The translations under genes were made by a program, and so were the position numbers. DNA of 64,000 bases from Thermoplasmata archaeon (GTDB taxonomy: Archaea; Thermoplasmatota; Thermoplasmata; Lutacidiplasmatales; UBA184): contig JAKIVS010000009.1 in assembly GCA_022750435.1 (NCBI GenBank), positions 6,909 to 70,908 of the forward strand. Reading direction: 5' to 3'. Below, piece after piece: positions 9,303 through 36,385 of the stretch. Position 1 is the first letter of the stretch; every line of letters begins with the position of its first letter. The notes under the pieces were generated by a model. That model was not told where the DNA came from, ran no database searches, and saw nothing but the letters and a program-made list of their open reading frames with translations.

Positions 9303-10397
9303 TCAGACGGAGTCGCTGGAGAGCGGTTTGCTGGCTGCGGTCGGGAGCTTGGCCCCGCACTTCCAGCAGTTCGTCTCGTTGGGATAGACGACGGCCCCGC
9401 AGCTCGGACAGGCCGCCTCGGTCTTGGTCCCGGTGCCGCTCGGGGAGGGGGTTCCCCCCGGAGGAAGTCCGAGCGGGGTGAGCGGTGGGGGATTTCCCGA
9501 GGTCGGGGGGATCGTGCCCGAGCCGGCGCCGGCCCGCGCCGCCTTCTTCCGGGCCTCGCGGTTCTTCAGGAAGACGTAGACCAGCAGGCCCACGTAGAAC
9601 ACGATCCCGGGGTAGAACAGCACGTCCAGGATGGTTTGGGGCAGCAAGAGGTCGTAGGTTGAGAGCCACGTCCCAGTCACCGGGCCCTGGACGGCCCCGT
9701 ACGCGTTCGAGACGGACAGGAAGATCCACTGGTAGGTCGTGTTGGTCGAGTTCGTGGACGCGTTGAAGGTGACCGTCCTCGCGAGGAGGCCCATCTGCCA
9801 CCACCAGATGTTCGGCCCAGGCAGCGCGAGGTGGAAGTCGAGGTGCGCCGGGGACTCGGTGGTGTTGATGACGGACTGGTTGACGGGGTAGAACGGGTAT
9901 CCGTTGCCGCAGAAGGGGGAGGAGTTCCCGGTGGCGCCGGGACAGGTGCTGACGAACAGCTCGAGCGAGTAGGGGGTGGTATTGGCCGGAAGCCGCGCTG
10001 GGTACATGTCGACCGAGAAGTCGAACATCGTGCCCCCGGCGGCGTTGTAGGGGGACACGGTGGCGTTCGTCAGGACCGGTTGGCCGTTCGAGGTGTTGAG
10101 CGCGTCCGTCGCGGACGAGGCGAGGCCGCTCGGGATCATCGCTTGCGAGGTCAGCCCCCAATTGATTAGCGGTCCGGCGGCGAGGATCACGACGATTCCG
10201 AGGACCGCCAGCTGGCGCGGGGACTTCCAGCCGAGATAGATCGGGACCCCGAGCCCGAAGAGCAGGAACGTGGGGATGGCGAAGTACGGACCGAGGTAGT
10301 AGAACGAGAGCGCGAGGGTCAGAAGCGCCAATCCGCCGAGGGCAATCTTCCCGTACCGCGTGGCCACGAACGCCCGCAGTCCCGTCCCGCGCTGCAC
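9303..10397 (-). CDS. Polytopic membrane glycoprotein-like protein with C-terminal cytoplasmic zinc ribbon
   Basis: The ORF extends to TTG 10448, but I place the start at GTG 10397, which is ~29 nt downstream of the TATA box at 10422-10431. The protein has several N-terminal TM helices, a sequon-rich loop (NTS, NAT, NTT, NSS, NQS, NAS, NST...) and a last TM (VLFYPGIVFYVGLLVYVFL). The tail then ends in CPSCGAVVYPNETNCWKCG (CxxC-x10-CxxC). Confidence 0.75.
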   Translation of the reverse strand: MQRGTGLRAFVATRYGKIALGGLALLTLALSFYYLGPYFAIPTFLLFGLGVPIYLGWKSPRQLAVLGIVVILAAGPLINWGLTSQAMIPSGLASSATDALNTSNGQPVLTNATVSPYNAAGGTMFDFSVDMYPARLPANTTPYSLELFVSTCPGATGNSSPFCGNGYPFYPVNQSVINTTESPAHLDFHLALPGPNIWWWQMGLLARTVTFNASTNSTNTTYQWIFLSVSNAYGAVQGPVTGTWLSTYDLLLPQTILDVLFYPGIVFYVGLLVYVFLKNREARKKAARAGAGSGTIPPTSGNPPPLTPLGLPPGGTPSPSGTGTKTEAACPSCGAVVYPNETNCWKCGAKLPTAASKPLSSDSV

Positions 10398-10421
10398 GAT
10401 TCGGCGGTCGAGCGGGGCGCT

Positions 10422-10431
10422 CCATATAAGG
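10422..10431. promoter_or_regulatory. Single near-palindromic TATA box shared by divergent genes (10397 minus, apgM 10454 plus)
   Basis: CCATATAAGG has its centre ~28-29 nt from GTG 10397 on one strand and ~28 nt from ATG 10454 on the other. Confidence 0.5.
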
Positions 10432-10453
10432 AAACCCCGGGTCGCCAACGTCG

Positions 10454-25731: not shown

Positions 25732-26874
25732 ATGAGCCGAACCTCGACCGCGGACACCGGGACGGGGACACTCGTCGCGCCCGGCGCACCGCCCTACGAC
25801 GTTCGCGGGGGACCGACGCTCGGCGTCGTCGTCATGGTATTCCGGCGGCCGGATTTCTACCAGGAGGCCCTCCGGTCGATCGCCCGGCAGCTCGGTCCCC
25901 TCCCGCGCGTGGAGGTCGTCGTGGTGCGGAGCCCCAACGTGTCGATCGAGGTTCCGACCGAGCTCGAGACACGGGGCTGGTCCTGCACCGTTGTCCGGAG
26001 CGATGCGATCGGCGAGGGACCGTTTCTCGCCGACGGACTGACGGCGTTGACCACGGAGTTCCTCCTCCCTCTGGACGACGACGACCTTTGGGTGGACGAC
26101 CGCCTCCGTCGCGTCGTGGAGGCGCTCGGGCAGCACCCCGGCGCCGGCTACTATCACAACGGGCAGGCGTTCGTCGATGGGCAGGGCGGCCCCCTCGATA
26201 CCGCCACGTCGCTGCGCCGCCTCCGTCGCTACACCGGCGCCCCGGTCGGACCGTTGCGCGAAGTACGGGTGGAGACCCTCCGGCGGCACCCGTCGGCCCT
26301 GGCCCGGTGGGGGGCGTTCTTCAACAACAGCTCCGTCGCAATCCGTCGCTCGGCCCTGCTCGACTGCCTGCCCGAGCTCCGGTCCACCGCGCGTCTCGCG
26401 GATTCGTTCATGTTCTACGCCGCACTGGCGAGCGGCGAGCCCCTCCTATTCGATGCGTCCCCGACGACCCAGTACCGCATCCACGCGGGAAACCGGTCTC
26501 GAGGCACCCAGGCAGCGGCCGCCCCCGGCATCGTGCAGCCGTCAGAGACGCGCGCCGGGCGCATGGCGTCCGTCGAGGCGATGCGGGCCATGGCGCGGCG
26601 TCGCGGGGCGCCGTGGTTGGGGACGTGGCTCGACCGGGACGCGGCGTACCTCGACCTCCTCGAGGGGTTTCGGGAAGGCGAGACCGACCGGACCCTCACC
26701 GTCCGACGGACGCTCCGCTTGGCCCGGTACCTCGGCTACGCCGACCCGCTGATGAACCTCGTCCTGGCGATCACGGGGTGTGGCCTGGCAGTGTCTCCGG
26801 GTCTGGCCCACCGATCGTACTGGTCGCCGGCTCCGGAGGTTCCGGGTGCCCCGCCCTCCGGCCCCGGATCGTAA
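25732..26874 (+). CDS. GT2-like glycosyltransferase
   Basis: 380 aa. LGVVVMVFRRPDFYQEALRSI and LPLDDDDLW (DxD) are consistent with a GT-A fold. The remainder is unassigned. Confidence 0.6.
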   Translation: MSRTSTADTGTGTLVAPGAPPYDVRGGPTLGVVVMVFRRPDFYQEALRSIARQLGPLPRVEVVVVRSPNVSIEVPTELETRGWSCTVVRSDAIGEGPFLADGLTALTTEFLLPLDDDDLWVDDRLRRVVEALGQHPGAGYYHNGQAFVDGQGGPLDTATSLRRLRRYTGAPVGPLREVRVETLRRHPSALARWGAFFNNSSVAIRRSALLDCLPELRSTARLADSFMFYAALASGEPLLFDASPTTQYRIHAGNRSRGTQAAAAPGIVQPSETRAGRMASVEAMRAMARRRGAPWLGTWLDRDAAYLDLLEGFREGETDRTLTVRRTLRLARYLGYADPLMNLVLAITGCGLAVSPGLAHRSYWSPAPEVPGAPPSGPGS

Positions 26875-29800
26875 GGACGACGCCGAGCGCGATCAAGACC
26901 ACGACCTCGACCCAGGAGGCTTCGAGGCCCACCAGGATCCAGGTCCGGAAGTGCAGGGTCACCACCGACCCGTTCCCTCCTCCGGCGACCTCGAAGACGT
27001 TGTCGAACGGGGCCCCGTCCACGCTCGTCACCCCGCCGGTACCGGCCACCGAGGCCGTCCAGAGCGGGTCGTACGGGTAGCCCAGGACGACGAATCGGGC
27101 CGATCCCGAGGGAACCAGGACGTCCCCGGAAGCGGTGACGGAACCCGTGGTGCCGATCGATCCGTTCGACGACGGCCCGGCCGGGGACTCCGCCACGAGG
27201 TACGAGACGTCGGGAAGCTGCGCGACGGAGGTCGCATGGAGGCAGAGCGCCGCCCCGACCATCGAGACCGTCTCGGTAGCCTTGGTGATCTCCACCGGGC
27301 CGCTCGGGACGGCCGACCGATTGAACCCGGGGTTGACCGCATCGACGCTCGCGTCGCCGAACCCGATCGACGTGGAGGTGCTGACGTTCCCCGCCGAGAG
27401 GATCGCGCTCGCCGTCGTGTCGTTCCAGCGAAGAGACATCGACCAGGCGCTCCCGGTCGGCAGCAACCGGGGCACCACGCTGTTGTGCCAGGCGTAGGCG
27501 ACGTCCCCGTGGAGCGCGGACAGCGCGAGGGCGACAAGGTGGCCGGGCGTGTCTTGGTACGTTTGGAGAAGGAGCGAGACGTTCCCGGACGCCAGATCGA
27601 TGCTGGCCCAACTGTTCGTCCCGGGCGCTGCCAGTGTGACGTTCGCGGTGAGGTACGCCGGGCCGGACACGGTTCCGTTGGAGGCGAGGTACACCGACTG
27701 GCTCGTCGTGGAGCAGTACCCGTTCGGCGACTCCGGCTGGGTGGGGAGGTACTCCCCGGGGACGCTCGAATTCCGCTCGCTCTCGCCTTGGATGGTGAGC
27801 TCCGTGCCGGCCCAGCCGAACTCGGTCCCGTTCTGGAGGCAGGTACCCTGTCCGCACGGGGCAGGGCCCCAGCCGCCCGTGCGGTTCACCACGCCCGCCA
27901 GGTCTCCCGGAGGGAGCGAGAGCGTGGCCGTAGGCGTCGTCACGGCCGACGGGCGCAGTTGCCAGGCGGGGAGGCTCGAGTTGGGGGCCCACAGCCCCGC
28001 CCGCAATCCCCGGAGCCACGCGGGAGGGCCGGAGGTAACGGCGCCCACGAAGCCGAGGGCCGCGGCGTCCGTGGGAGTATCGATCGCGACCAACGAGGAC
28101 GTCGACCAGCCGAGCGGCACCGGATCCGGCACGGTGTAGACGACGAATCGACCGACGGGGCTCCCAGGACCCAGGGCGGCGGGAAGCGCGCCGAGGACGG
28201 CGTTGTAGTCGATGGGCGCGTCGTTCGGCGCCTCGTTCATGCTGGGTGCCGTGCGGTTGGCATACGGGTTGTCCACGACGTACCGCACGTGGGCATTCTC
28301 CAGCACGGCGGTGAGGTTCGGTGGGACGCCGCCGGCGAGAAGTTCCTCGAGAGCCGCGGCGGTGGGACCGTTGTTGGTCTCGAGCACCGGATAGGGGATG
28401 AACGAGGCCAGCAGATTGCCGGTGTCGAGGTACTGCTCGCCGGAGATGTTCAGATACGCCCCGTTTTGGGCGCTCATTGGGAGGACGAGGACGTAGTACT
28501 CCGGGCCGTTCGAGGGTGTACCGAGAAAGGTCTGCAGGACCCCGTACGAGGGCGGGAGCGGAATCACGTTCGCGTTCGGCCCGGTCGATTGGTCGACGTC
28601 GGCGAGCGCGAACGGGAGGGCGGAGACGACCAGCAGTACCACGATCACGATGGAGAGCACGACCGAGGGACGACGAAGCTCACGGGCCGCCCGGCGCCAT
28701 CGCGGGGGGAGGGGGGTCGGTCCAATCGAGGTCGGTGACCCGGGACTCGGGGACGCCTCCCCGTGGAACAGTTCGTGGAGTCCGACGACCGGAACGAGGA
28801 GATAGACGGTCCCGAGGAAGTAGAACGCGCCGGCGAGCACAAGGAACGGTCCGCCGAGGTGCAGCAGGTCGAGGTCGACCCCGGTGAGCGGAGCCACTCC
28901 GCCGATCATCAGGGCCAGGGTGGTCAGGCCCATGGCGTAGACGAGGAGCGCCCCCCGGCTGCGACGGAGGCGAACGGCCCCCAGGATCGCCACGAGCGGG
29001 AAGACGATCGCCGCCGCGGCGATCGCGGGGAAGAGGGCGATCCACCCGTACGCGGACGGCGTCCGAACGAGCCACGAGAACGCCGTGAGGGTCACGACGG
29101 AATACGGAGTCGAGGTCGCCGCGACCTCGTTGTAGACGAACACGAGGTTGGCGGGCGTGACGTAGTTGTTCGACGTGTACGCCACGTTGGGGATGAGGAG
29201 GAATGGGACGAACGACCACCCCTCGATCCCGAGGGTGACCCCGACGAGCAGGAGCGACCGCACCACGCGGGACGCCCACCGCATCGGTCGGTGCAGGTCG
29301 GACAGCCAGACCGCGACCAGGCCCCAGAGGACCACGATCGAAACCGGGACCGCGAACGATGAGATGGCGCCCGGGGCCAGGTACGTTCCGAGGAGCGTCA
29401 CGACGATCGCGAATCGCCACGGGACGGTCCGGTCGTGGGCGACCCGAAGCGTCAGCGCGGCGAGCCACGGGAGGAATGCGAGGAACAAGGTCCACCCCTC
29501 GACGTGCCAAAAGGTGACCGAGAGGGTGAACGGGTTGTAGACGTAGACGAGCGCGATCAGACCGAGCACGTACCCCGGCGACGTCGCCGGTCGGTCGCGG
29601 ACCCGGTCGATCGTCCGCAGCAGGACGACCGCCCCGGCGGCGGCGAGGCCCGCGAACAGGGCGAGGATGAGCCGCTCCGCCCACCACGCCGGGACGGAAA
29701 GGGCCGCCAGGGCCCGTAGGGTGAGGTCGACGTAGAAGTAGGGGGTGAAGTCGGGGACGGGGAAGGTCGAGGAGTCGAGGTAGCTGTACGGGATCAACGG

Positions 29801-30199
29801 CGAATCGTTGAAGCTGAACGCCTGGAAGAGGCGCGTGGAGTCCTGCCCGTACAGCAGCTCCCCGAACGGCCGTCCCCAGTAAATCGGGCCGAGCGCCGCG
29901 AGGAGCACGAACAACCAGGGAGAACGGAGGAGACGCACCGCCCAGGGGCGACCCCGCTCGATCCAGGCGAACACCCGTCTGCGGGTTGGTCCGCCCGGTA
30001 CCGAAGGCGGGGTGCCGGAGCTCTCGGGTCCTCCGTCCGCGCTTGCCACGTGTCCGGTCCCAGGCGGGCGCGCCCGGTCCTCGTCGACGGGAGGACCCGG
30101 GCCCGGCTTATCATCGTTGGGCCGTGTCGGAATCGCCGGGAGGGCCCTCGTGCGGTTCGTCTTCGTCAGTGAATCGCCCGACCGCGTCCGAGGCGGCAT
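26771..30199 (-). CDS. Giant polytopic membrane protein, GT-C-like glycosyltransferase candidate with large sequon-rich ectodomain and C-terminal TM anchor
   Basis: 1142-aa ORF. About 12 or more hydrophobic helices span residues ~85-560, followed by a ~520-aa NxS/T-rich beta-rich region and a terminal TM (VEVVVLIALGVVLTI). This architecture resembles AftD/DUF3367-type GT-C enzymes. No WWDYG motif is present, so it is not a canonical AglB. The start could be GTG 30049 rather than ATG 30199, which would remove the overlap with the divergent GT4 gene. Confidence 0.6.
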   Translation of the reverse strand: MPPRTRSGDSLTKTNRTRALPAIPTRPNDDKPGPGPPVDEDRARPPGTGHVASADGGPESSGTPPSVPGGPTRRRVFAWIERGRPWAVRLLRSPWLFVLLAALGPIYWGRPFGELLYGQDSTRLFQAFSFNDSPLIPYSYLDSSTFPVPDFTPYFYVDLTLRALAALSVPAWWAERLILALFAGLAAAGAVVLLRTIDRVRDRPATSPGYVLGLIALVYVYNPFTLSVTFWHVEGWTLFLAFLPWLAALTLRVAHDRTVPWRFAIVVTLLGTYLAPGAISSFAVPVSIVVLWGLVAVWLSDLHRPMRWASRVVRSLLLVGVTLGIEGWSFVPFLLIPNVAYTSNNYVTPANLVFVYNEVAATSTPYSVVTLTAFSWLVRTPSAYGWIALFPAIAAAAIVFPLVAILGAVRLRRSRGALLVYAMGLTTLALMIGGVAPLTGVDLDLLHLGGPFLVLAGAFYFLGTVYLLVPVVGLHELFHGEASPSPGSPTSIGPTPLPPRWRRAARELRRPSVVLSIVIVVLLVVSALPFALADVDQSTGPNANVIPLPPSYGVLQTFLGTPSNGPEYYVLVLPMSAQNGAYLNISGEQYLDTGNLLASFIPYPVLETNNGPTAAALEELLAGGVPPNLTAVLENAHVRYVVDNPYANRTAPSMNEAPNDAPIDYNAVLGALPAALGPGSPVGRFVVYTVPDPVPLGWSTSSLVAIDTPTDAAALGFVGAVTSGPPAWLRGLRAGLWAPNSSLPAWQLRPSAVTTPTATLSLPPGDLAGVVNRTGGWGPAPCGQGTCLQNGTEFGWAGTELTIQGESERNSSVPGEYLPTQPESPNGYCSTTSQSVYLASNGTVSGPAYLTANVTLAAPGTNSWASIDLASGNVSLLLQTYQDTPGHLVALALSALHGDVAYAWHNSVVPRLLPTGSAWSMSLRWNDTTASAILSAGNVSTSTSIGFGDASVDAVNPGFNRSAVPSGPVEITKATETVSMVGAALCLHATSVAQLPDVSYLVAESPAGPSSNGSIGTTGSVTASGDVLVPSGSARFVVLGYPYDPLWTASVAGTGGVTSVDGAPFDNVFEVAGGGNGSVVTLHFRTWILVGLEASWVEVVVLIALGVVLTIRGRRAGHPEPPEPATSTIGGPDPETLPGHTP

Positions 30200-32845: not shown

Positions 32846-35800
32846 CTACTGCGTGACCGCGCCACAGAACGGACAGACGAGGTACTCGGGCGGGATCTCC
32901 TTGCCGCAGTTCGAGCACGCCTTCATCGGGGCCTGACCCGCGCCACCGGCGGGCGTAGCCGGTGGGGTGGCGGGTGCGTTTGCCGAGGCGGTCGTGGGGG
33001 TCGGCGCGGGAGCGGCCGCGGTGGGGACCGCCTTCGAGGCTGGGCTGCGGGCCGCCGGGGGCGGGGCCGACGCGCCGCCCGCCCCGCCGCCCTTCTTCGG
33101 GGGCGGCGCGGTGGTCGGCGTGGAGACGGCCTGGGGCCCCGGTGCCTCGGTGGCGGCGTCCTCGGGGGGCGCGCCCATCCCGGCGCGGGATCCCTGCGAT
33201 TGCTGGACCTTCCACTGGCTGTACGGGAGGTACGTCGGCTGGCGCTTCCACCAGTCCCAGAACGCTCCCTCGCCGTAGTTCTCGCCGAGCTCCTTCTTCG
33301 CCTCGCCGCGGAACCGACCGACGTAGTCGGAGTATCCCTGGCGCTCCGGGTCGCTCGTCTCGAGCTCGCCCTTGCCGAGCAGCTGGGCCGCGCATTCGGG
33401 GCAGACCTCGGACTTCGAGGGGATCGTGGAGCCGCACCGGCTGCACCGGACGAGGTCGACCTCGAACTCGGCACCGCACTTGGGGCAGGTGGTGGCGTCC
33501 TCGGGGATCAGGTTCCCGCACTCGCCGCACTCGACGAGCTTCCCCTTCGCCTGGCGCTGGAAGAAGAACAAGAGTCCGATGACCGCGACGATTGCCGCCA
33601 CGATGATGACGAGGAGCAGCCAGAGCGGGATCAGGCCGAAGATCTTCTGGTTCCAGAACGTCGGGGCCGCTGAGGCCGGAGGCCCGATCGAGAACTCATC
33701 GGTGACGTTCTTCGAGGCGGTCCGTCCCTGGTGGTACGCCGTCACCTGGACGGAGTACTGCCCGTTCGCCATCGAGCTCGGCAGGAACAGCTCGACGGTC
33801 AGGCCCGTGCCGGAGACGGTCGACTGCGTGCTGAGCGCGTAGTCGCCCGCCGTGCCGATCGCCGTGACGTTCAGGTACGCCGACTGGTTGCCGGCGAACA
33901 GGAGGGTCACCGAGCCGACGTAGTTCGCTCCGGCGGTGAGCTGGCCGACCGGTCCCGTGAACGAGAGGGATATGTACGACGGCTCGATCGTCTTGTTGAC
34001 CGAAGCTTCGACGAGGCCGCCGATCGGCGCGATCCCCTGGTTCCACAGCACGATGGCGAGGAACGTCTGGTTGATCGGGGGATGCGGGATCCCGGTGACC
34101 GTCTCGTTGACGACCCAGGGGAAGACGAAGCTGAGGTTCGCGCCGACGGCGAGCGGTGTCGTCCCGTTCTTCGCCCCAAGGACCGTTCCGTTCTGGCCCG
34201 GCTTGCTCGGGGTCGCCTCGAGCGTGACGTTGTAGAGTGCGACCGCGCCCGTGCCGATGTTCGAGATCGTGACGGTGAAGTTCGTCGACTCGCCGATGGC
34301 GAGGGTGTTGTTGGTGTTGAGGGTCGCATTCGCCGCGCCGACGGTGACGCTCGCCACGCTGGCGCCGAGCGCCGGTCGGTAGAGCGGGAACACGGTCGGG
34401 GCCTGCACGTCGCCCGTCGCCGGGTTCATGTTCGTCGGGTACGGGGAGACCGAGCCGGTGAACCACGTCGGGGGGCCAGCGCGGCCTCCGGCGACCGTCA
34501 CCACGACATGGTAGTCCCCGAGAAACTGGCCGTCCTGGAGGGTGCTGTAGGAGAGATTGCCCGCGAGGAGCAAGAGCGAGGCGGTGCCCGTGAGCGGGTT
34601 CGTTCCGCCGTAGGTGCTGACGTCGTTCTGGGCGTCCCAGGCGGCGACATACCCGGCGAGGTCGGGGTCCGCGGTCGCTAGGTTGTTGAGCGCCGTCGCG
34701 GTCGCATTGTTCGCCTGGTTGTTGTCGTACGCGTAGTACGCGACCGCAGATCCGCCCGCGACGGGCTGGTTGCCCGCGCCGTAGACGGGGATGTCCATCC
34801 AGCGGTAGAAGTACGCCTGGCTCGAGGCATCCGGAAGGACGGCCGAGATGTCGGTCACATTCTGTGGGTTCGGGGCGACCACGGTCGTGAGGTCGCCGAG
34901 GAACGCGTGGGCGCCGTTCGAGACAATGACCTTGTTCGACAGCCACGGCTGGGACACCGGGGGCGCCGTCGGGGGGCGGGGGAACGGGGCGACCGGGTAC
35001 CAGTTGATCCCGAGGGTCGAATCGACCGCCGTGAGGGTGCTCCCGGAGCCGGAGACCGTGATGTTGAACGAGGTGCCTGCGACGAGGTTGACCTGGATCA
35101 GCGTGAGCGCGACGGGCGTTGCGGAGTTCGTCGTCCCGAGGGAGACGGAGACCCCTCCCGAGGAGGCGGCGGCGAAGAACGCCGGCACGCCGAGGGCGTT
35201 GATCTCGCTAATCGCGGCGGCCGGGAGGGCCACCGTCACCTGGGTATCGGCCGCTCCGTAGACGATGGTGCCGAGGCTCGTCGTCCCCGTGTAGGTGATC
35301 GAGTTGGTCGTTGCTTGCTCATCGACCGTGGCGTTGTAGCCGATCGTGATCGAGCCAGCCGTCACGGTCCGGTACAGGGTGTCCTGCAAAAGCGAGGTCG
35401 GGTCGCTGGCCGTCGTGAACGCCGAGAACGTCCCGCTCTGGCTGGAGGAGATTGACGCCGCGAAGGAGTCGGTGAGCGGGTTCGGCTGCGGGCTGCCAGA
35501 CAGGCTCCAGTTGTCCGCGTACGTCGCGCTCTCGGTCGACGCACCCAAGGTGAGGCGGCCGCCACCGGTCACCGCGAGAGTCGGACCGTACAAGCTGTCG
35601 TTCGTCGTTGCTGTGTTGGCAGGGTTGGTGGCGTTGGGGAGCTCGAGGTTGTCCGGGTTCCGGCCGAGGGTCGAGCTGTTGACCCAGAGGGCCGCACCCA
35701 ACCCGTAGACGCTCACGGCCCCGGCGAACTGGAGGCCGCTCGAGTTGACGTACATCTGCCCGGGCGCCGTCACATTGATCGAGACCTTCGCATAGGCGTT

Positions 35801-36280
35801 GAGCACCGCCAGATCGGCGGTGATCGTCGAGGACTGGACCCAGACGCTGCCTTGGTCGTTGAACGTGTAGAGGTGGCCGAGCCGGTTCCCAATTGTGCCA
35901 GTCGTGCCGATGTACTGGACGAACTCGAACGTGGTCTGCTTGATGTACAGCTGGCCGCCGGGAAGGACGGTCACGTTGCCGCCCTGGTAGTAGGTCTGGT
36001 GAGACGAGGAGCCGGGCGCGATGACGTACGGGGAGTTGGACGGGCCCACGACGAGGTCTCCATGGGTGACCGCGGCGGGCTGGACGGCCGCGTGGGCGAG
36101 GCTCGGGGCGCTCGAGCGCACCGGGAACGCGGCGGAGGCTCCGGCCGGGGACGCCGGGACGGCCAAAAGGCTCGCCACGAGCAGCAGGAGCAGGAAGCCG
36201 AGAACCCAACGTCCGGACGGTCGGCGACGGGCGAGCGCCGTCCCTCTCCCAAGTGGAGGGGGGACTAGAAAACGGTCCAC
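32846..36280 (-). CDS. Giant S-layer/adhesin-like glycoprotein: signal peptide, ~880-aa sequon-rich ectodomain, one TM, cytoplasmic tail with three zinc ribbons
   Basis: The ORF extends to TTG 36316, but that codon lies inside the TATA box, so I start at GTG 36280. The signal peptide is RRRPSGRWVLGFLLLLLVASLLAVPASPAGASA. I count more than 20 N-x-S/T sequons by eye. The TM is LIPLWLLLVIIVAAIVAVIGLLFFF. The tail contains CGECG-x11-CPKCG, CSRCG-x10-CPEC, a P/A/T-rich linker and a terminal CSNCG-x10-CPFCG. Confidence 0.8.
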   Translation of the reverse strand: MDRFLVPPPLGRGTALARRRPSGRWVLGFLLLLLVASLLAVPASPAGASAAFPVRSSAPSLAHAAVQPAAVTHGDLVVGPSNSPYVIAPGSSSHQTYYQGGNVTVLPGGQLYIKQTTFEFVQYIGTTGTIGNRLGHLYTFNDQGSVWVQSSTITADLAVLNAYAKVSINVTAPGQMYVNSSGLQFAGAVSVYGLGAALWVNSSTLGRNPDNLELPNATNPANTATTNDSLYGPTLAVTGGGRLTLGASTESATYADNWSLSGSPQPNPLTDSFAASISSSQSGTFSAFTTASDPTSLLQDTLYRTVTAGSITIGYNATVDEQATTNSITYTGTTSLGTIVYGAADTQVTVALPAAAISEINALGVPAFFAAASSGGVSVSLGTTNSATPVALTLIQVNLVAGTSFNITVSGSGSTLTAVDSTLGINWYPVAPFPRPPTAPPVSQPWLSNKVIVSNGAHAFLGDLTTVVAPNPQNVTDISAVLPDASSQAYFYRWMDIPVYGAGNQPVAGGSAVAYYAYDNNQANNATATALNNLATADPDLAGYVAAWDAQNDVSTYGGTNPLTGTASLLLLAGNLSYSTLQDGQFLGDYHVVVTVAGGRAGPPTWFTGSVSPYPTNMNPATGDVQAPTVFPLYRPALGASVASVTVGAANATLNTNNTLAIGESTNFTVTISNIGTGAVALYNVTLEATPSKPGQNGTVLGAKNGTTPLAVGANLSFVFPWVVNETVTGIPHPPINQTFLAIVLWNQGIAPIGGLVEASVNKTIEPSYISLSFTGPVGQLTAGANYVGSVTLLFAGNQSAYLNVTAIGTAGDYALSTQSTVSGTGLTVELFLPSSMANGQYSVQVTAYHQGRTASKNVTDEFSIGPPASAAPTFWNQKIFGLIPLWLLLVIIVAAIVAVIGLLFFFQRQAKGKLVECGECGNLIPEDATTCPKCGAEFEVDLVRCSRCGSTIPSKSEVCPECAAQLLGKGELETSDPERQGYSDYVGRFRGEAKKELGENYGEGAFWDWWKRQPTYLPYSQWKVQQSQGSRAGMGAPPEDAATEAPGPQAVSTPTTAPPPKKGGGAGGASAPPPAARSPASKAVPTAAAPAPTPTTASANAPATPPATPAGGAGQAPMKACSNCGKEIPPEYLVCPFCGAVTQ

Positions 36281-36305
36281 GACCGAAATTAAGTGAAACT
36301 CCCGG

Positions 36306-36313
36306 TATAAAAA
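36306..36313 (-). promoter_or_regulatory. Canonical archaeal TATA box (TTTTTATA on the minus strand)
   Basis: The plus strand reads TATAAAAA at 36306-36313. GTG 36280 lies 26 nt downstream of it on the minus strand, consistent with a leaderless or near-leaderless mRNA. Confidence 0.55.
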
Positions 36314-36385
36314 CAATCCCGGCGCGCCGGCACGCCCGGAAATTCTCGTCGGCGCGTCGTATAACGCGAGCCCGTCCCGGCCGGG

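Follow-up and report, generated by a model that had tools for sequence, protein, structure and literature searches.

The window analysed here is a stretch of 64,000 nucleotides from an uncultured soil archaeon of the class Thermoplasmata (order Lutacidiplasmatales; assembly GCA_022750435.1, contig JAKIVS010000009.1, positions 6,909 to 70,908 of the forward strand). On its minus strand, flanked by an MDR dehydrogenase gene and by ahcY, lies a gene for a large surface protein that has a single transmembrane (TM) helix and ends in a cytoplasmic tail with three zinc ribbons. What the gene encodes is an archaeal surface protein anchored by a TM helix, and the literature searched yielded no description of its conserved cytoplasmic module: no paper was found on a zinc-ribbon-tailed archaeal surface protein, nor on the tail family, and the Lutacidiplasmatales genome paper does not discuss envelopes. 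From the architecture of the protein, its topology indicators, the pattern of its conservation, the distribution of its family and the synteny of its gene, all reported here, we infer that the tail may bind a cytoplasmic partner and which partner is the leading candidate. The promoter element and the parts of the protein, as located by hydropathy, profile comparison and AlphaFold2 (AF2) modelling, are the following (aa, amino acids).

36306..36313, minus strand: TATA box, TTTTTATA, its last base 26 nucleotides upstream of GTG 36280
36131..36280, minus strand: signal-peptide-like N-terminus, residues 1-50 (MDRF..., RRRPSGR, a hydrophobic core, AGASA), from hydropathy
34433..36079, minus strand: ectodomain head, residues ~68-616, beta-rich, including a YRW prealbumin-like segment, from hhalign and AF2
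33686..34369, minus strand: membrane-proximal stalk of immunoglobulin (Ig)-like beta-sandwiches, residues ~638-865, from AF2 strands and Foldseek
33560..33643, minus strand: single TM helix, residues 880-907, followed by basic QRQAKGK, from the hydropathy maximum of 3.39 and an AF2 helix at 886-910
33386..33538, minus strand: double zinc ribbon, residues 915-965, CGECG-x9-CPKCG and CSRCG-x9-CPEC, from Pfam, Cys conservation and AF2
33191..33349, minus strand: three-helix aromatic domain, residues ~978-1030, holding FWDWWKRQ, from AF2 and conservation
32927..33175, minus strand: P/A/T-rich linker of low complexity, residues ~1036-1118, with predicted disorder and low conservation
32846..32926, minus strand: terminal zinc ribbon, residues 1119-1144, KACSNCGKEIPPEYLVCPFCGAVTQ, with the stop codon; the best Zn_Ribbon_1 stretch is 1122-1141

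Counted from its first TTG, the open reading frame (ORF) spans 32846..36316 on the minus strand, and the GTG at 36280 is the likely start codon, which gives a product of 1144 aa (32846..36280), the same length as the database copy. A reading made earlier from the sequence alone (the sequence-only reading) had placed a TATA box 26 nucleotides before this GTG and proposed a leaderless start with strong expression. The box is present at that distance, and a TATA-like element with a downstream GTG is kept in three homologous loci (L004, L005, L006), in the closest of which, L006, the MDRF N-terminus is in frame and conserved; because of these three conserved features the mRNA is probably leaderless or near-leaderless. 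The strong expression found no support. The codon adaptation index (CAI), which we use as an expression proxy with EF-1a, EF-2, S7, S10 and thermosome genes as the reference set, is 0.642 for this gene (68th percentile) against 0.67-0.85 for the EF-1a, EF-2 and thermosome genes, and codon usage does not indicate very high expression.

Hydropathy shows two hydrophobic segments only, at residues ~21-50 (signal-peptide-like, after RRRPSGR) and 880-907. All 25 N-x-S/T sequons lie between these two segments and none lies in the tail; the number exceeds the shuffle mean of 11.7, with 0 of 2000 shuffles reaching 25, and corresponds to a density of 3.0 per 100 aa of ectodomain. The Cys residues show the opposite distribution, as the ectodomain is Cys-free and all 12 fall in the 237-aa tail (918/921/932/935, 946/949/960/963 and 1122/1125/1136/1139). 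The picture of a sequon-rich surface protein with one TM helix and a three-ribbon tail is therefore borne out, together with its large ectodomain, with corrections of detail: the ectodomain measures ~830 aa after the signal peptide, not ~880, the tail is 237 aa long, not ~250, and in place of the x10 and x11 spacings all three ribbons read CxxCG-x9-CPxC(G).

The same partition is found in the homologues. In an alignment of 32 homologues with 38-86% identity, the TM helix of one falls below the detection threshold used; the 31 others have 19-42 sequons outside and 0-3 inside, with the 12 Cys inside, following the TM helix, and an ectodomain that contains no Cys in 28 and one in two. A topology with the ribbons outside the cell was considered and rejected, given that sequons and Cys are partitioned across the TM helix in 31 of the 32, and the N-out/C-in orientation first proposed is upheld. 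We consider that the protein is best read as a bitopic (N-out, C-in), N-glycosylated surface protein. N-glycosylation is plausible because the genome has an STT3/AglB-like gene, recognised by a sole match of 28.4 bits, just over the cut-off. This match (C13:66951-68075, plus strand) lies inside an open frame of 2226 aa, an unusually long candidate for an oligosaccharyltransferase.

The tail is a composite of known and unlisted parts. Its relationship to the DZR and zinc-ribbon families, which the sequence-only reading had proposed to check, is confirmed by Pfam scores over the gathering cut-offs, with 51 bits against 25 for Zn_Ribbon_1 (PF13240; E 1e-13) and 42.5 bits against 27.3 for DZR (PF12773; E 7e-11), and Zn_ribbon_3 (PF13248) is likewise above its curated cut-off. 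Between the double ribbon and the linker, the Trp-rich segment FWDWWKRQPTYLPYSQWK occupies residues 1007-1024, ahead of the P/A/T-rich stretch, within a domain for which AF2, run with a diverse alignment, predicts helices at residues ~978-1001, 1004-1013 and 1020-1030. The mean predicted local distance difference test (pLDDT) value of this tail model is 82, with 78-90 for the two ribbons and 96-98 for the three-helix domain; in the rest of the protein the head is mostly at 75-95 and the linker below 50. The three-helix aromatic domain is absent from the Pfam and PDB libraries searched, because Pfam and PDB matches, whether by sequence or by profile, are confined to the ribbons and a Foldseek comparison of the tail model with the PDB returned nothing at E < 0.1. 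Pfam and NCBIfam contain no match for the helical domain or for the ectodomain.

A search of 5.8 billion proteins recovered 33 homologues with 32-87% identity, every named one of which comes from Thermoplasmata metagenome-assembled genomes and nearly all of which are ~1000-1350 aa long with the same ribbon domains. JGI labels most of them 'RNA polymerase subunit RPABC4/transcription elongation factor Spt4', an erroneous name that stems from the zinc ribbon. An assembly or fusion artefact was also considered and rejected, as more than 30 full-length homologues on long contigs have the same architecture. All 12 Cys and the FWDWWKRQ motif are invariant in the alignment of 32, and in the terminal ribbon the invariant positions extend well beyond the metal ligands (C1122, C1125, K1127, E1128, P1130, L1134, V1135, C1136, P1137, F1138, C1139, V1142 and T1143). 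Per-column conservation is 0.74-0.90 in the ribbons and the helical segment and 0.38-0.66 in the ectodomain, and it drops to 0.38-0.42 in the linker against 0.9 in its flanks. Judged by these columns, constraint on the protein is strongest in the cytoplasmic tail, as would be expected of an interaction module in the cytoplasm more than of a passive anchor. The expectation of conserved CxxC pairs thus holds, and so does the view that the protein is not just a passive coat, the conservation of the tail being far above that of the ectodomain.

The conservation of the tail extends far beyond the close homologues. A profile built from residues 905-1045 finds matches with E <= 1e-5 in 268 of 301 genomes that sample the class; at the weak end the matches cover ribbons only, and the strong matches to the full module sit in open frames of 600-4500 aa. 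Among 1.84 billion representative proteins, 144 match at E <= 1e-30, with a protein length of 1000-3800 aa and the module ~200-300 aa from the C-terminus. The relatives have CARDB repeats and CarboxypepD_reg-like domains on the outer side of a TM helix that leads into the same tail module, and with one to six CARDB repeats per relative the stalk is the variable part of the family; the surface protein of the window itself has no CARDB (PF07705) match in Pfam at E <= 1. Across the class-wide alignment, eight Cys (those of the double ribbon), two Pro, two Phe and one Trp are invariant, with F1007 and W1010 among the invariant residues and W1011 in at least 90% of sequences. The surface protein shows the family hallmark directly after its TM helix, namely the double ribbon and the helical domain with F..WW..QP.Y..F..W, and its head is homologous to that of relatives of ~1700 aa (hhalign probability 100%, E 4e-69, 499 columns, residues 27-616 against 16-562). 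Because the tail module and the ~550-aa head are both homologous class-wide, the window protein is a member of this family, a compact and order-specific one with a short stalk. The survey of related archaea for ectodomain-TM-zinc-ribbon proteins that the sequence-only reading had suggested hence finds a family across the class Thermoplasmata. One member is from a cultured organism: WP_012997017.1 of Aciduliprofundum boonei T469, 1503 aa, annotated just as 'CARDB domain-containing protein', to which the tail aligns in BLASTP with E 1e-30 and 37% identity over 125 aa.

Family members differ in where they place the third ribbon. In most of the class the helices lead straight into it, and the protein then closes with a basic stretch rich in Pro (RRIVRRP..KKVVPKK); the clade of the window has the ~80-aa low-complexity linker and then the terminal ribbon K.C..CGKEI....L.CP[FY]CGAV; and a few proteins combine both. 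The full module is missing from Cuniculiplasma, other Thermoplasmatales, Ca. Methanomassiliicoccus intestinalis and Methanomethylophilaceae. Weak profile matches in Thermoplasmatales and Methanomassiliicoccales were rejected as members, being SPFH-domain or multi-TM proteins with generic C-terminal ribbons. The SPFH-domain proteins, ~375-390 aa long with three or four tandem C-terminal zinc ribbons, occur in Cuniculiplasma divulgatum, a Thermoplasmatales archaeon and M. intestinalis; in the first two the gene adjoins one whose ~345-aa product has a zinc ribbon at its N-terminus, and in M. intestinalis it adjoins one for a different protein, of 276 aa, that also starts with CxxC pairs. The multi-TM proteins of Methanomethylophilaceae (~372-386 aa) end in four consecutive cytoplasmic zinc ribbons and are unrelated to the tail family.

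Hydropathy, AF2 and Foldseek agree on a secreted, sequon-bearing chain of beta-sandwich domains with a membrane anchor, and these are features of surface-layer (S-layer) type. The protein might then be the main S-layer (coat) subunit of the lineage, with a tail that merely anchors and spaces the lattice on the tetraether membrane. Many archaeal S-layer proteins are indeed type-I glycoproteins made of a beta-sandwich chain and a C-terminal TM anchor, the gene is vertically conserved and the module is present in a single copy in the 1.9-Mb genome, and the full module is found in the S-layer-bearing A. boonei and absent from the wall-less Cuniculiplasma, other Thermoplasmatales and Methanomethylophilaceae. 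Foldseek with the full-length model also aligns the Nitrosopumilus maritimus S-layer (PDB 8c8l) over 850 columns, but the TM-score of this alignment is just 0.12 and it belongs to a set of matches that consists only of generic tandem Ig-like domains. The codon usage of the gene, below that of the elongation factors and thermosome, would also speak against a coat subunit, although no large type-I protein of the genome stands out by CAI and this index does not single out an S-layer candidate. Moreover, at least 44 ORFs of the genome combine a start resembling a signal peptide with a C-terminal TM helix. Most of them have 2.3-8.5 sequons per 100 aa, many are longer than 1000 aa, and type-I proteins whose sequon density equals or exceeds that of the surface protein number at least 44. 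This glycoprotein surface repertoire is very large for a genome of 1.9 Mb and offers many comparable candidates. A passive anchor, finally, would have no need of a tail that surpasses the lattice-forming part in conservation. We consider the coat-subunit explanation unlikely. Sequon richness was itself tried as a special feature of the protein and rejected, as it is the norm for the secretome of this genome.

The position of the gene in related genomes provides a different kind of evidence. The order CBS-CGL-cysS-ADH-gene-ahcY-gcvH, a neighbourhood of housekeeping genes, is kept in three contigs although the identity between their copies of the gene is only 38-66%. Each of these three syntenic loci also has, five genes away, a pair for a repressor and a protease of BlaI/BlaR1-like type, and in its one-pass build and conserved cytoplasmic part the protein recalls bitopic receptors and anti-sigma factors, so that one may ask whether the protein is an outside-in signalling receptor, in which a ligand or regulated proteolysis changes or releases the tail and the tail acts on transcription or on an ATPase. 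Since the whole neighbourhood is syntenic, however, the BlaR1-like pair carries no specific signal; the tail has no DNA-binding, kinase or protease-site feature recognisable with Pfam and NCBIfam, and it is found on one family only, in which the variable part is the stalk. Signalling of this kind seems to us highly improbable.

Outside the order of the window the gene has a characteristic neighbour. Stretches of 20 kb around the tail were compared among 20 genomes that represent different families. Of the 17 loci outside the order, 13 have a pair of T2SSE genes just beyond the 3' end of the gene, within 10 kb, and the chance of such a pair is estimated at ~3% per locus. In A. boonei the gene for WP_012997017.1 faces, in convergent orientation, two genes for T2SSE (type II/IV secretion ATPase, PF00437) and one for T2SSF. 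Within the order, no T2SSE gene was found within 8-10 kb of the gene (0 of 6 loci). T2SSE is nonetheless present in 40 of 41 genomes of the window's taxonomic family, where an ATPase-TadC-TadC-ATPase operon lies on other contigs, and no giant ribbon protein was found beside these operons. In the genome of the window the tail gene is on contig C19 and the ATPase on C24, and the two are on different contigs in near-complete relatives too. It thus appears from these gene orders that in the order of the window the gene has left the pilus locus with its tail intact. The type IV pilus-like locus at C24:27966-35713 encodes one ATPase together with two TadC-like membrane proteins; its further products are a small ATPase of KaiC/ArlH-like type, a protein of 374 aa and another that resembles pilins. 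It is unlike the ATPase-TadC-TadC-ATPase operon of a genome of the same genus (G010, C14:10075-15593).

To account for these patterns, we propose a surface glycoprotein that is docked through its tail to a conserved cytoplasmic partner, a proposal to which we would give about an even chance. Outside the cell, a conserved head of ~550 aa would be carried on a variable Ig-like stalk. Inside, straight after the TM helix, there would follow a zinc-stabilised module in which two ribbons are packed against the three-helix aromatic domain, and a flexible linker of ~80 aa would then present a third, specifically conserved zinc ribbon. Through this tail the surface protein may dock to a cytoplasmic partner, so that the envelope would be coupled to intracellular machinery and the protein would not be a passive coat. 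The leading candidate partner is the two-ATPase type IV pilus-like machine or one of its accessories, because the gene stands tail-to-tail with the two-ATPase operon in most other orders; in the window's order it stands among the housekeeping genes under a conserved leaderless promoter of its own. A cytoskeletal filament would be a second candidate, by analogy with the archaeal protein CdpC.

Several points weigh against this proposal. The pilus linkage is absent in the window's own lineage, and tandem ATPase pairs persist in Cuniculiplasma and some other Thermoplasmatales that lack the surface protein, so that the linkage is strong but not obligatory and the surface protein is not an obligatory part of the two-ATPase pilus-like machine. 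Two other type-I proteins of the genome end in a linker and a zinc ribbon, which means that terminal ribbons may be a generic tail device. The conservation of the tail could also reflect a structural role, as in oligomerisation or as an anchoring plug, without a separate partner. The two proteins just mentioned are a membrane glycoprotein-like ORF of 381 aa in the window (9303-10448, minus strand; C19:16211-17356), which has at its cytoplasmic end a Pro/Gly-rich linker and then the zinc ribbon CPSCG...CWKCG, and an ORF of 353 aa at C15:17745-18806 (minus strand) that ends in CRYCG...CPKCGAPRT.

The analogy with CdpC could be taken further. CdpC (HVO_0399), the membrane anchor of FtsZ1 in Haloferax volcanii, places one zinc ribbon at the membrane and, beyond a long disordered linker, a terminal ribbon that serves as the FtsZ1-binding head (bioRxiv 10.64898/2026.07.16.738847). 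The window protein has the same order of parts, with ribbons at the membrane, a linker of ~80 aa and a terminal ribbon with invariant non-Cys residues, and the authors of the CdpC study report remote multi-ribbon relatives in Thermoplasmatota (bioRxiv 10.64898/2026.07.16.738847). It may be imagined, therefore, that FtsZ or another cytoskeletal filament is bound by the membrane-proximal and terminal ribbons, which the disordered linker joins, and is thereby connected with a large structure outside the cell. We regard such a tether as improbable. The likeness is in the order of parts alone, and zinc ribbons are too short and too common for a resemblance to count; the gene is not beside ftsZ or sepF in the window or in the three syntenic loci; and in most members of the class the helical domain leads straight into the third ribbon, without a long linker. 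CdpC differs from the window protein: it is peripheral and cytoplasmic, relies on an amphipathic helix for its hold and has neither ectodomain nor TM helix, and a three-helix aromatic domain is not described for it.

Many Thermoplasmata have no rigid wall, and little is known of what holds and organises the proteins on their surface. That the best-conserved part of a surface protein family is intracellular points to a specific cytoplasmic partner, and the retention of the tail throughout an order after the gene left the pilus locus constrains what the tail can be for. In its most far-reaching form, which we put forward tentatively and with more doubt than confidence, the docking proposal would make the tail a previously unrecognised trans-membrane coupling device in Thermoplasmata, by which a large, glycosylated structure on the surface would be wired mechanically to the two-ATPase type IV filament motor or to a cytoskeletal filament. 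If this is true, it would be a general link between envelope and cytoplasm in archaea without a rigid wall, and the Lutacidiplasmatales version would show that the device works when encoded apart from the pilus operon. The cultured A. boonei member makes a coupling between envelope and cytoplasm testable.

Elsewhere in the window, a further large ORF (26771-30199, minus strand) encodes a multi-TM protein of 1142 aa with a sequon-rich C-terminal domain, adjoins a GT4-like gene and has no Pfam or NCBIfam match at E <= 1.

In prokaryotic membrane proteins, ribbons of the DZR, Zn_Ribbon_1 and Zn_ribbon_3 types often flank TM helices, and the usual layout is an N-terminal ribbon on a type-II protein. 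The window protein differs from these in having three ribbons and an unannotated helical domain after the TM helix of a type-I protein. It resembles the N. maritimus S-layer protein in its chain of Ig-like domains, its N-glycosylation sequons and its Cys-poor ectodomain; we know of no S-layer protein with a structured cytoplasmic zinc-ribbon tail of ~240 aa, and literature searches found no S-layer protein with a structured tail of this kind. The closest known systems among pilus loci are the 'S-layer-like' large proteins with a C-terminal TM helix that are encoded in euryarchaeal type IV pilus loci of the PilA/PilB3 type, of which the two-ATPase locus of A. boonei is an example (Makarova, Koonin & Albers 2016, PMC4858521). 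That study has no occurrence of zinc and does not describe a conserved cytoplasmic tail, and unlike its proteins, those of the window's order are encoded outside a pilus locus in all six loci. The proteins described there are, like the family reported here, large, secreted and beta-rich with one C-terminal TM helix, and the adjacency to a pilus locus that they exhibit is shared by the A. boonei member and by the 13 of 17 loci outside the window's order.

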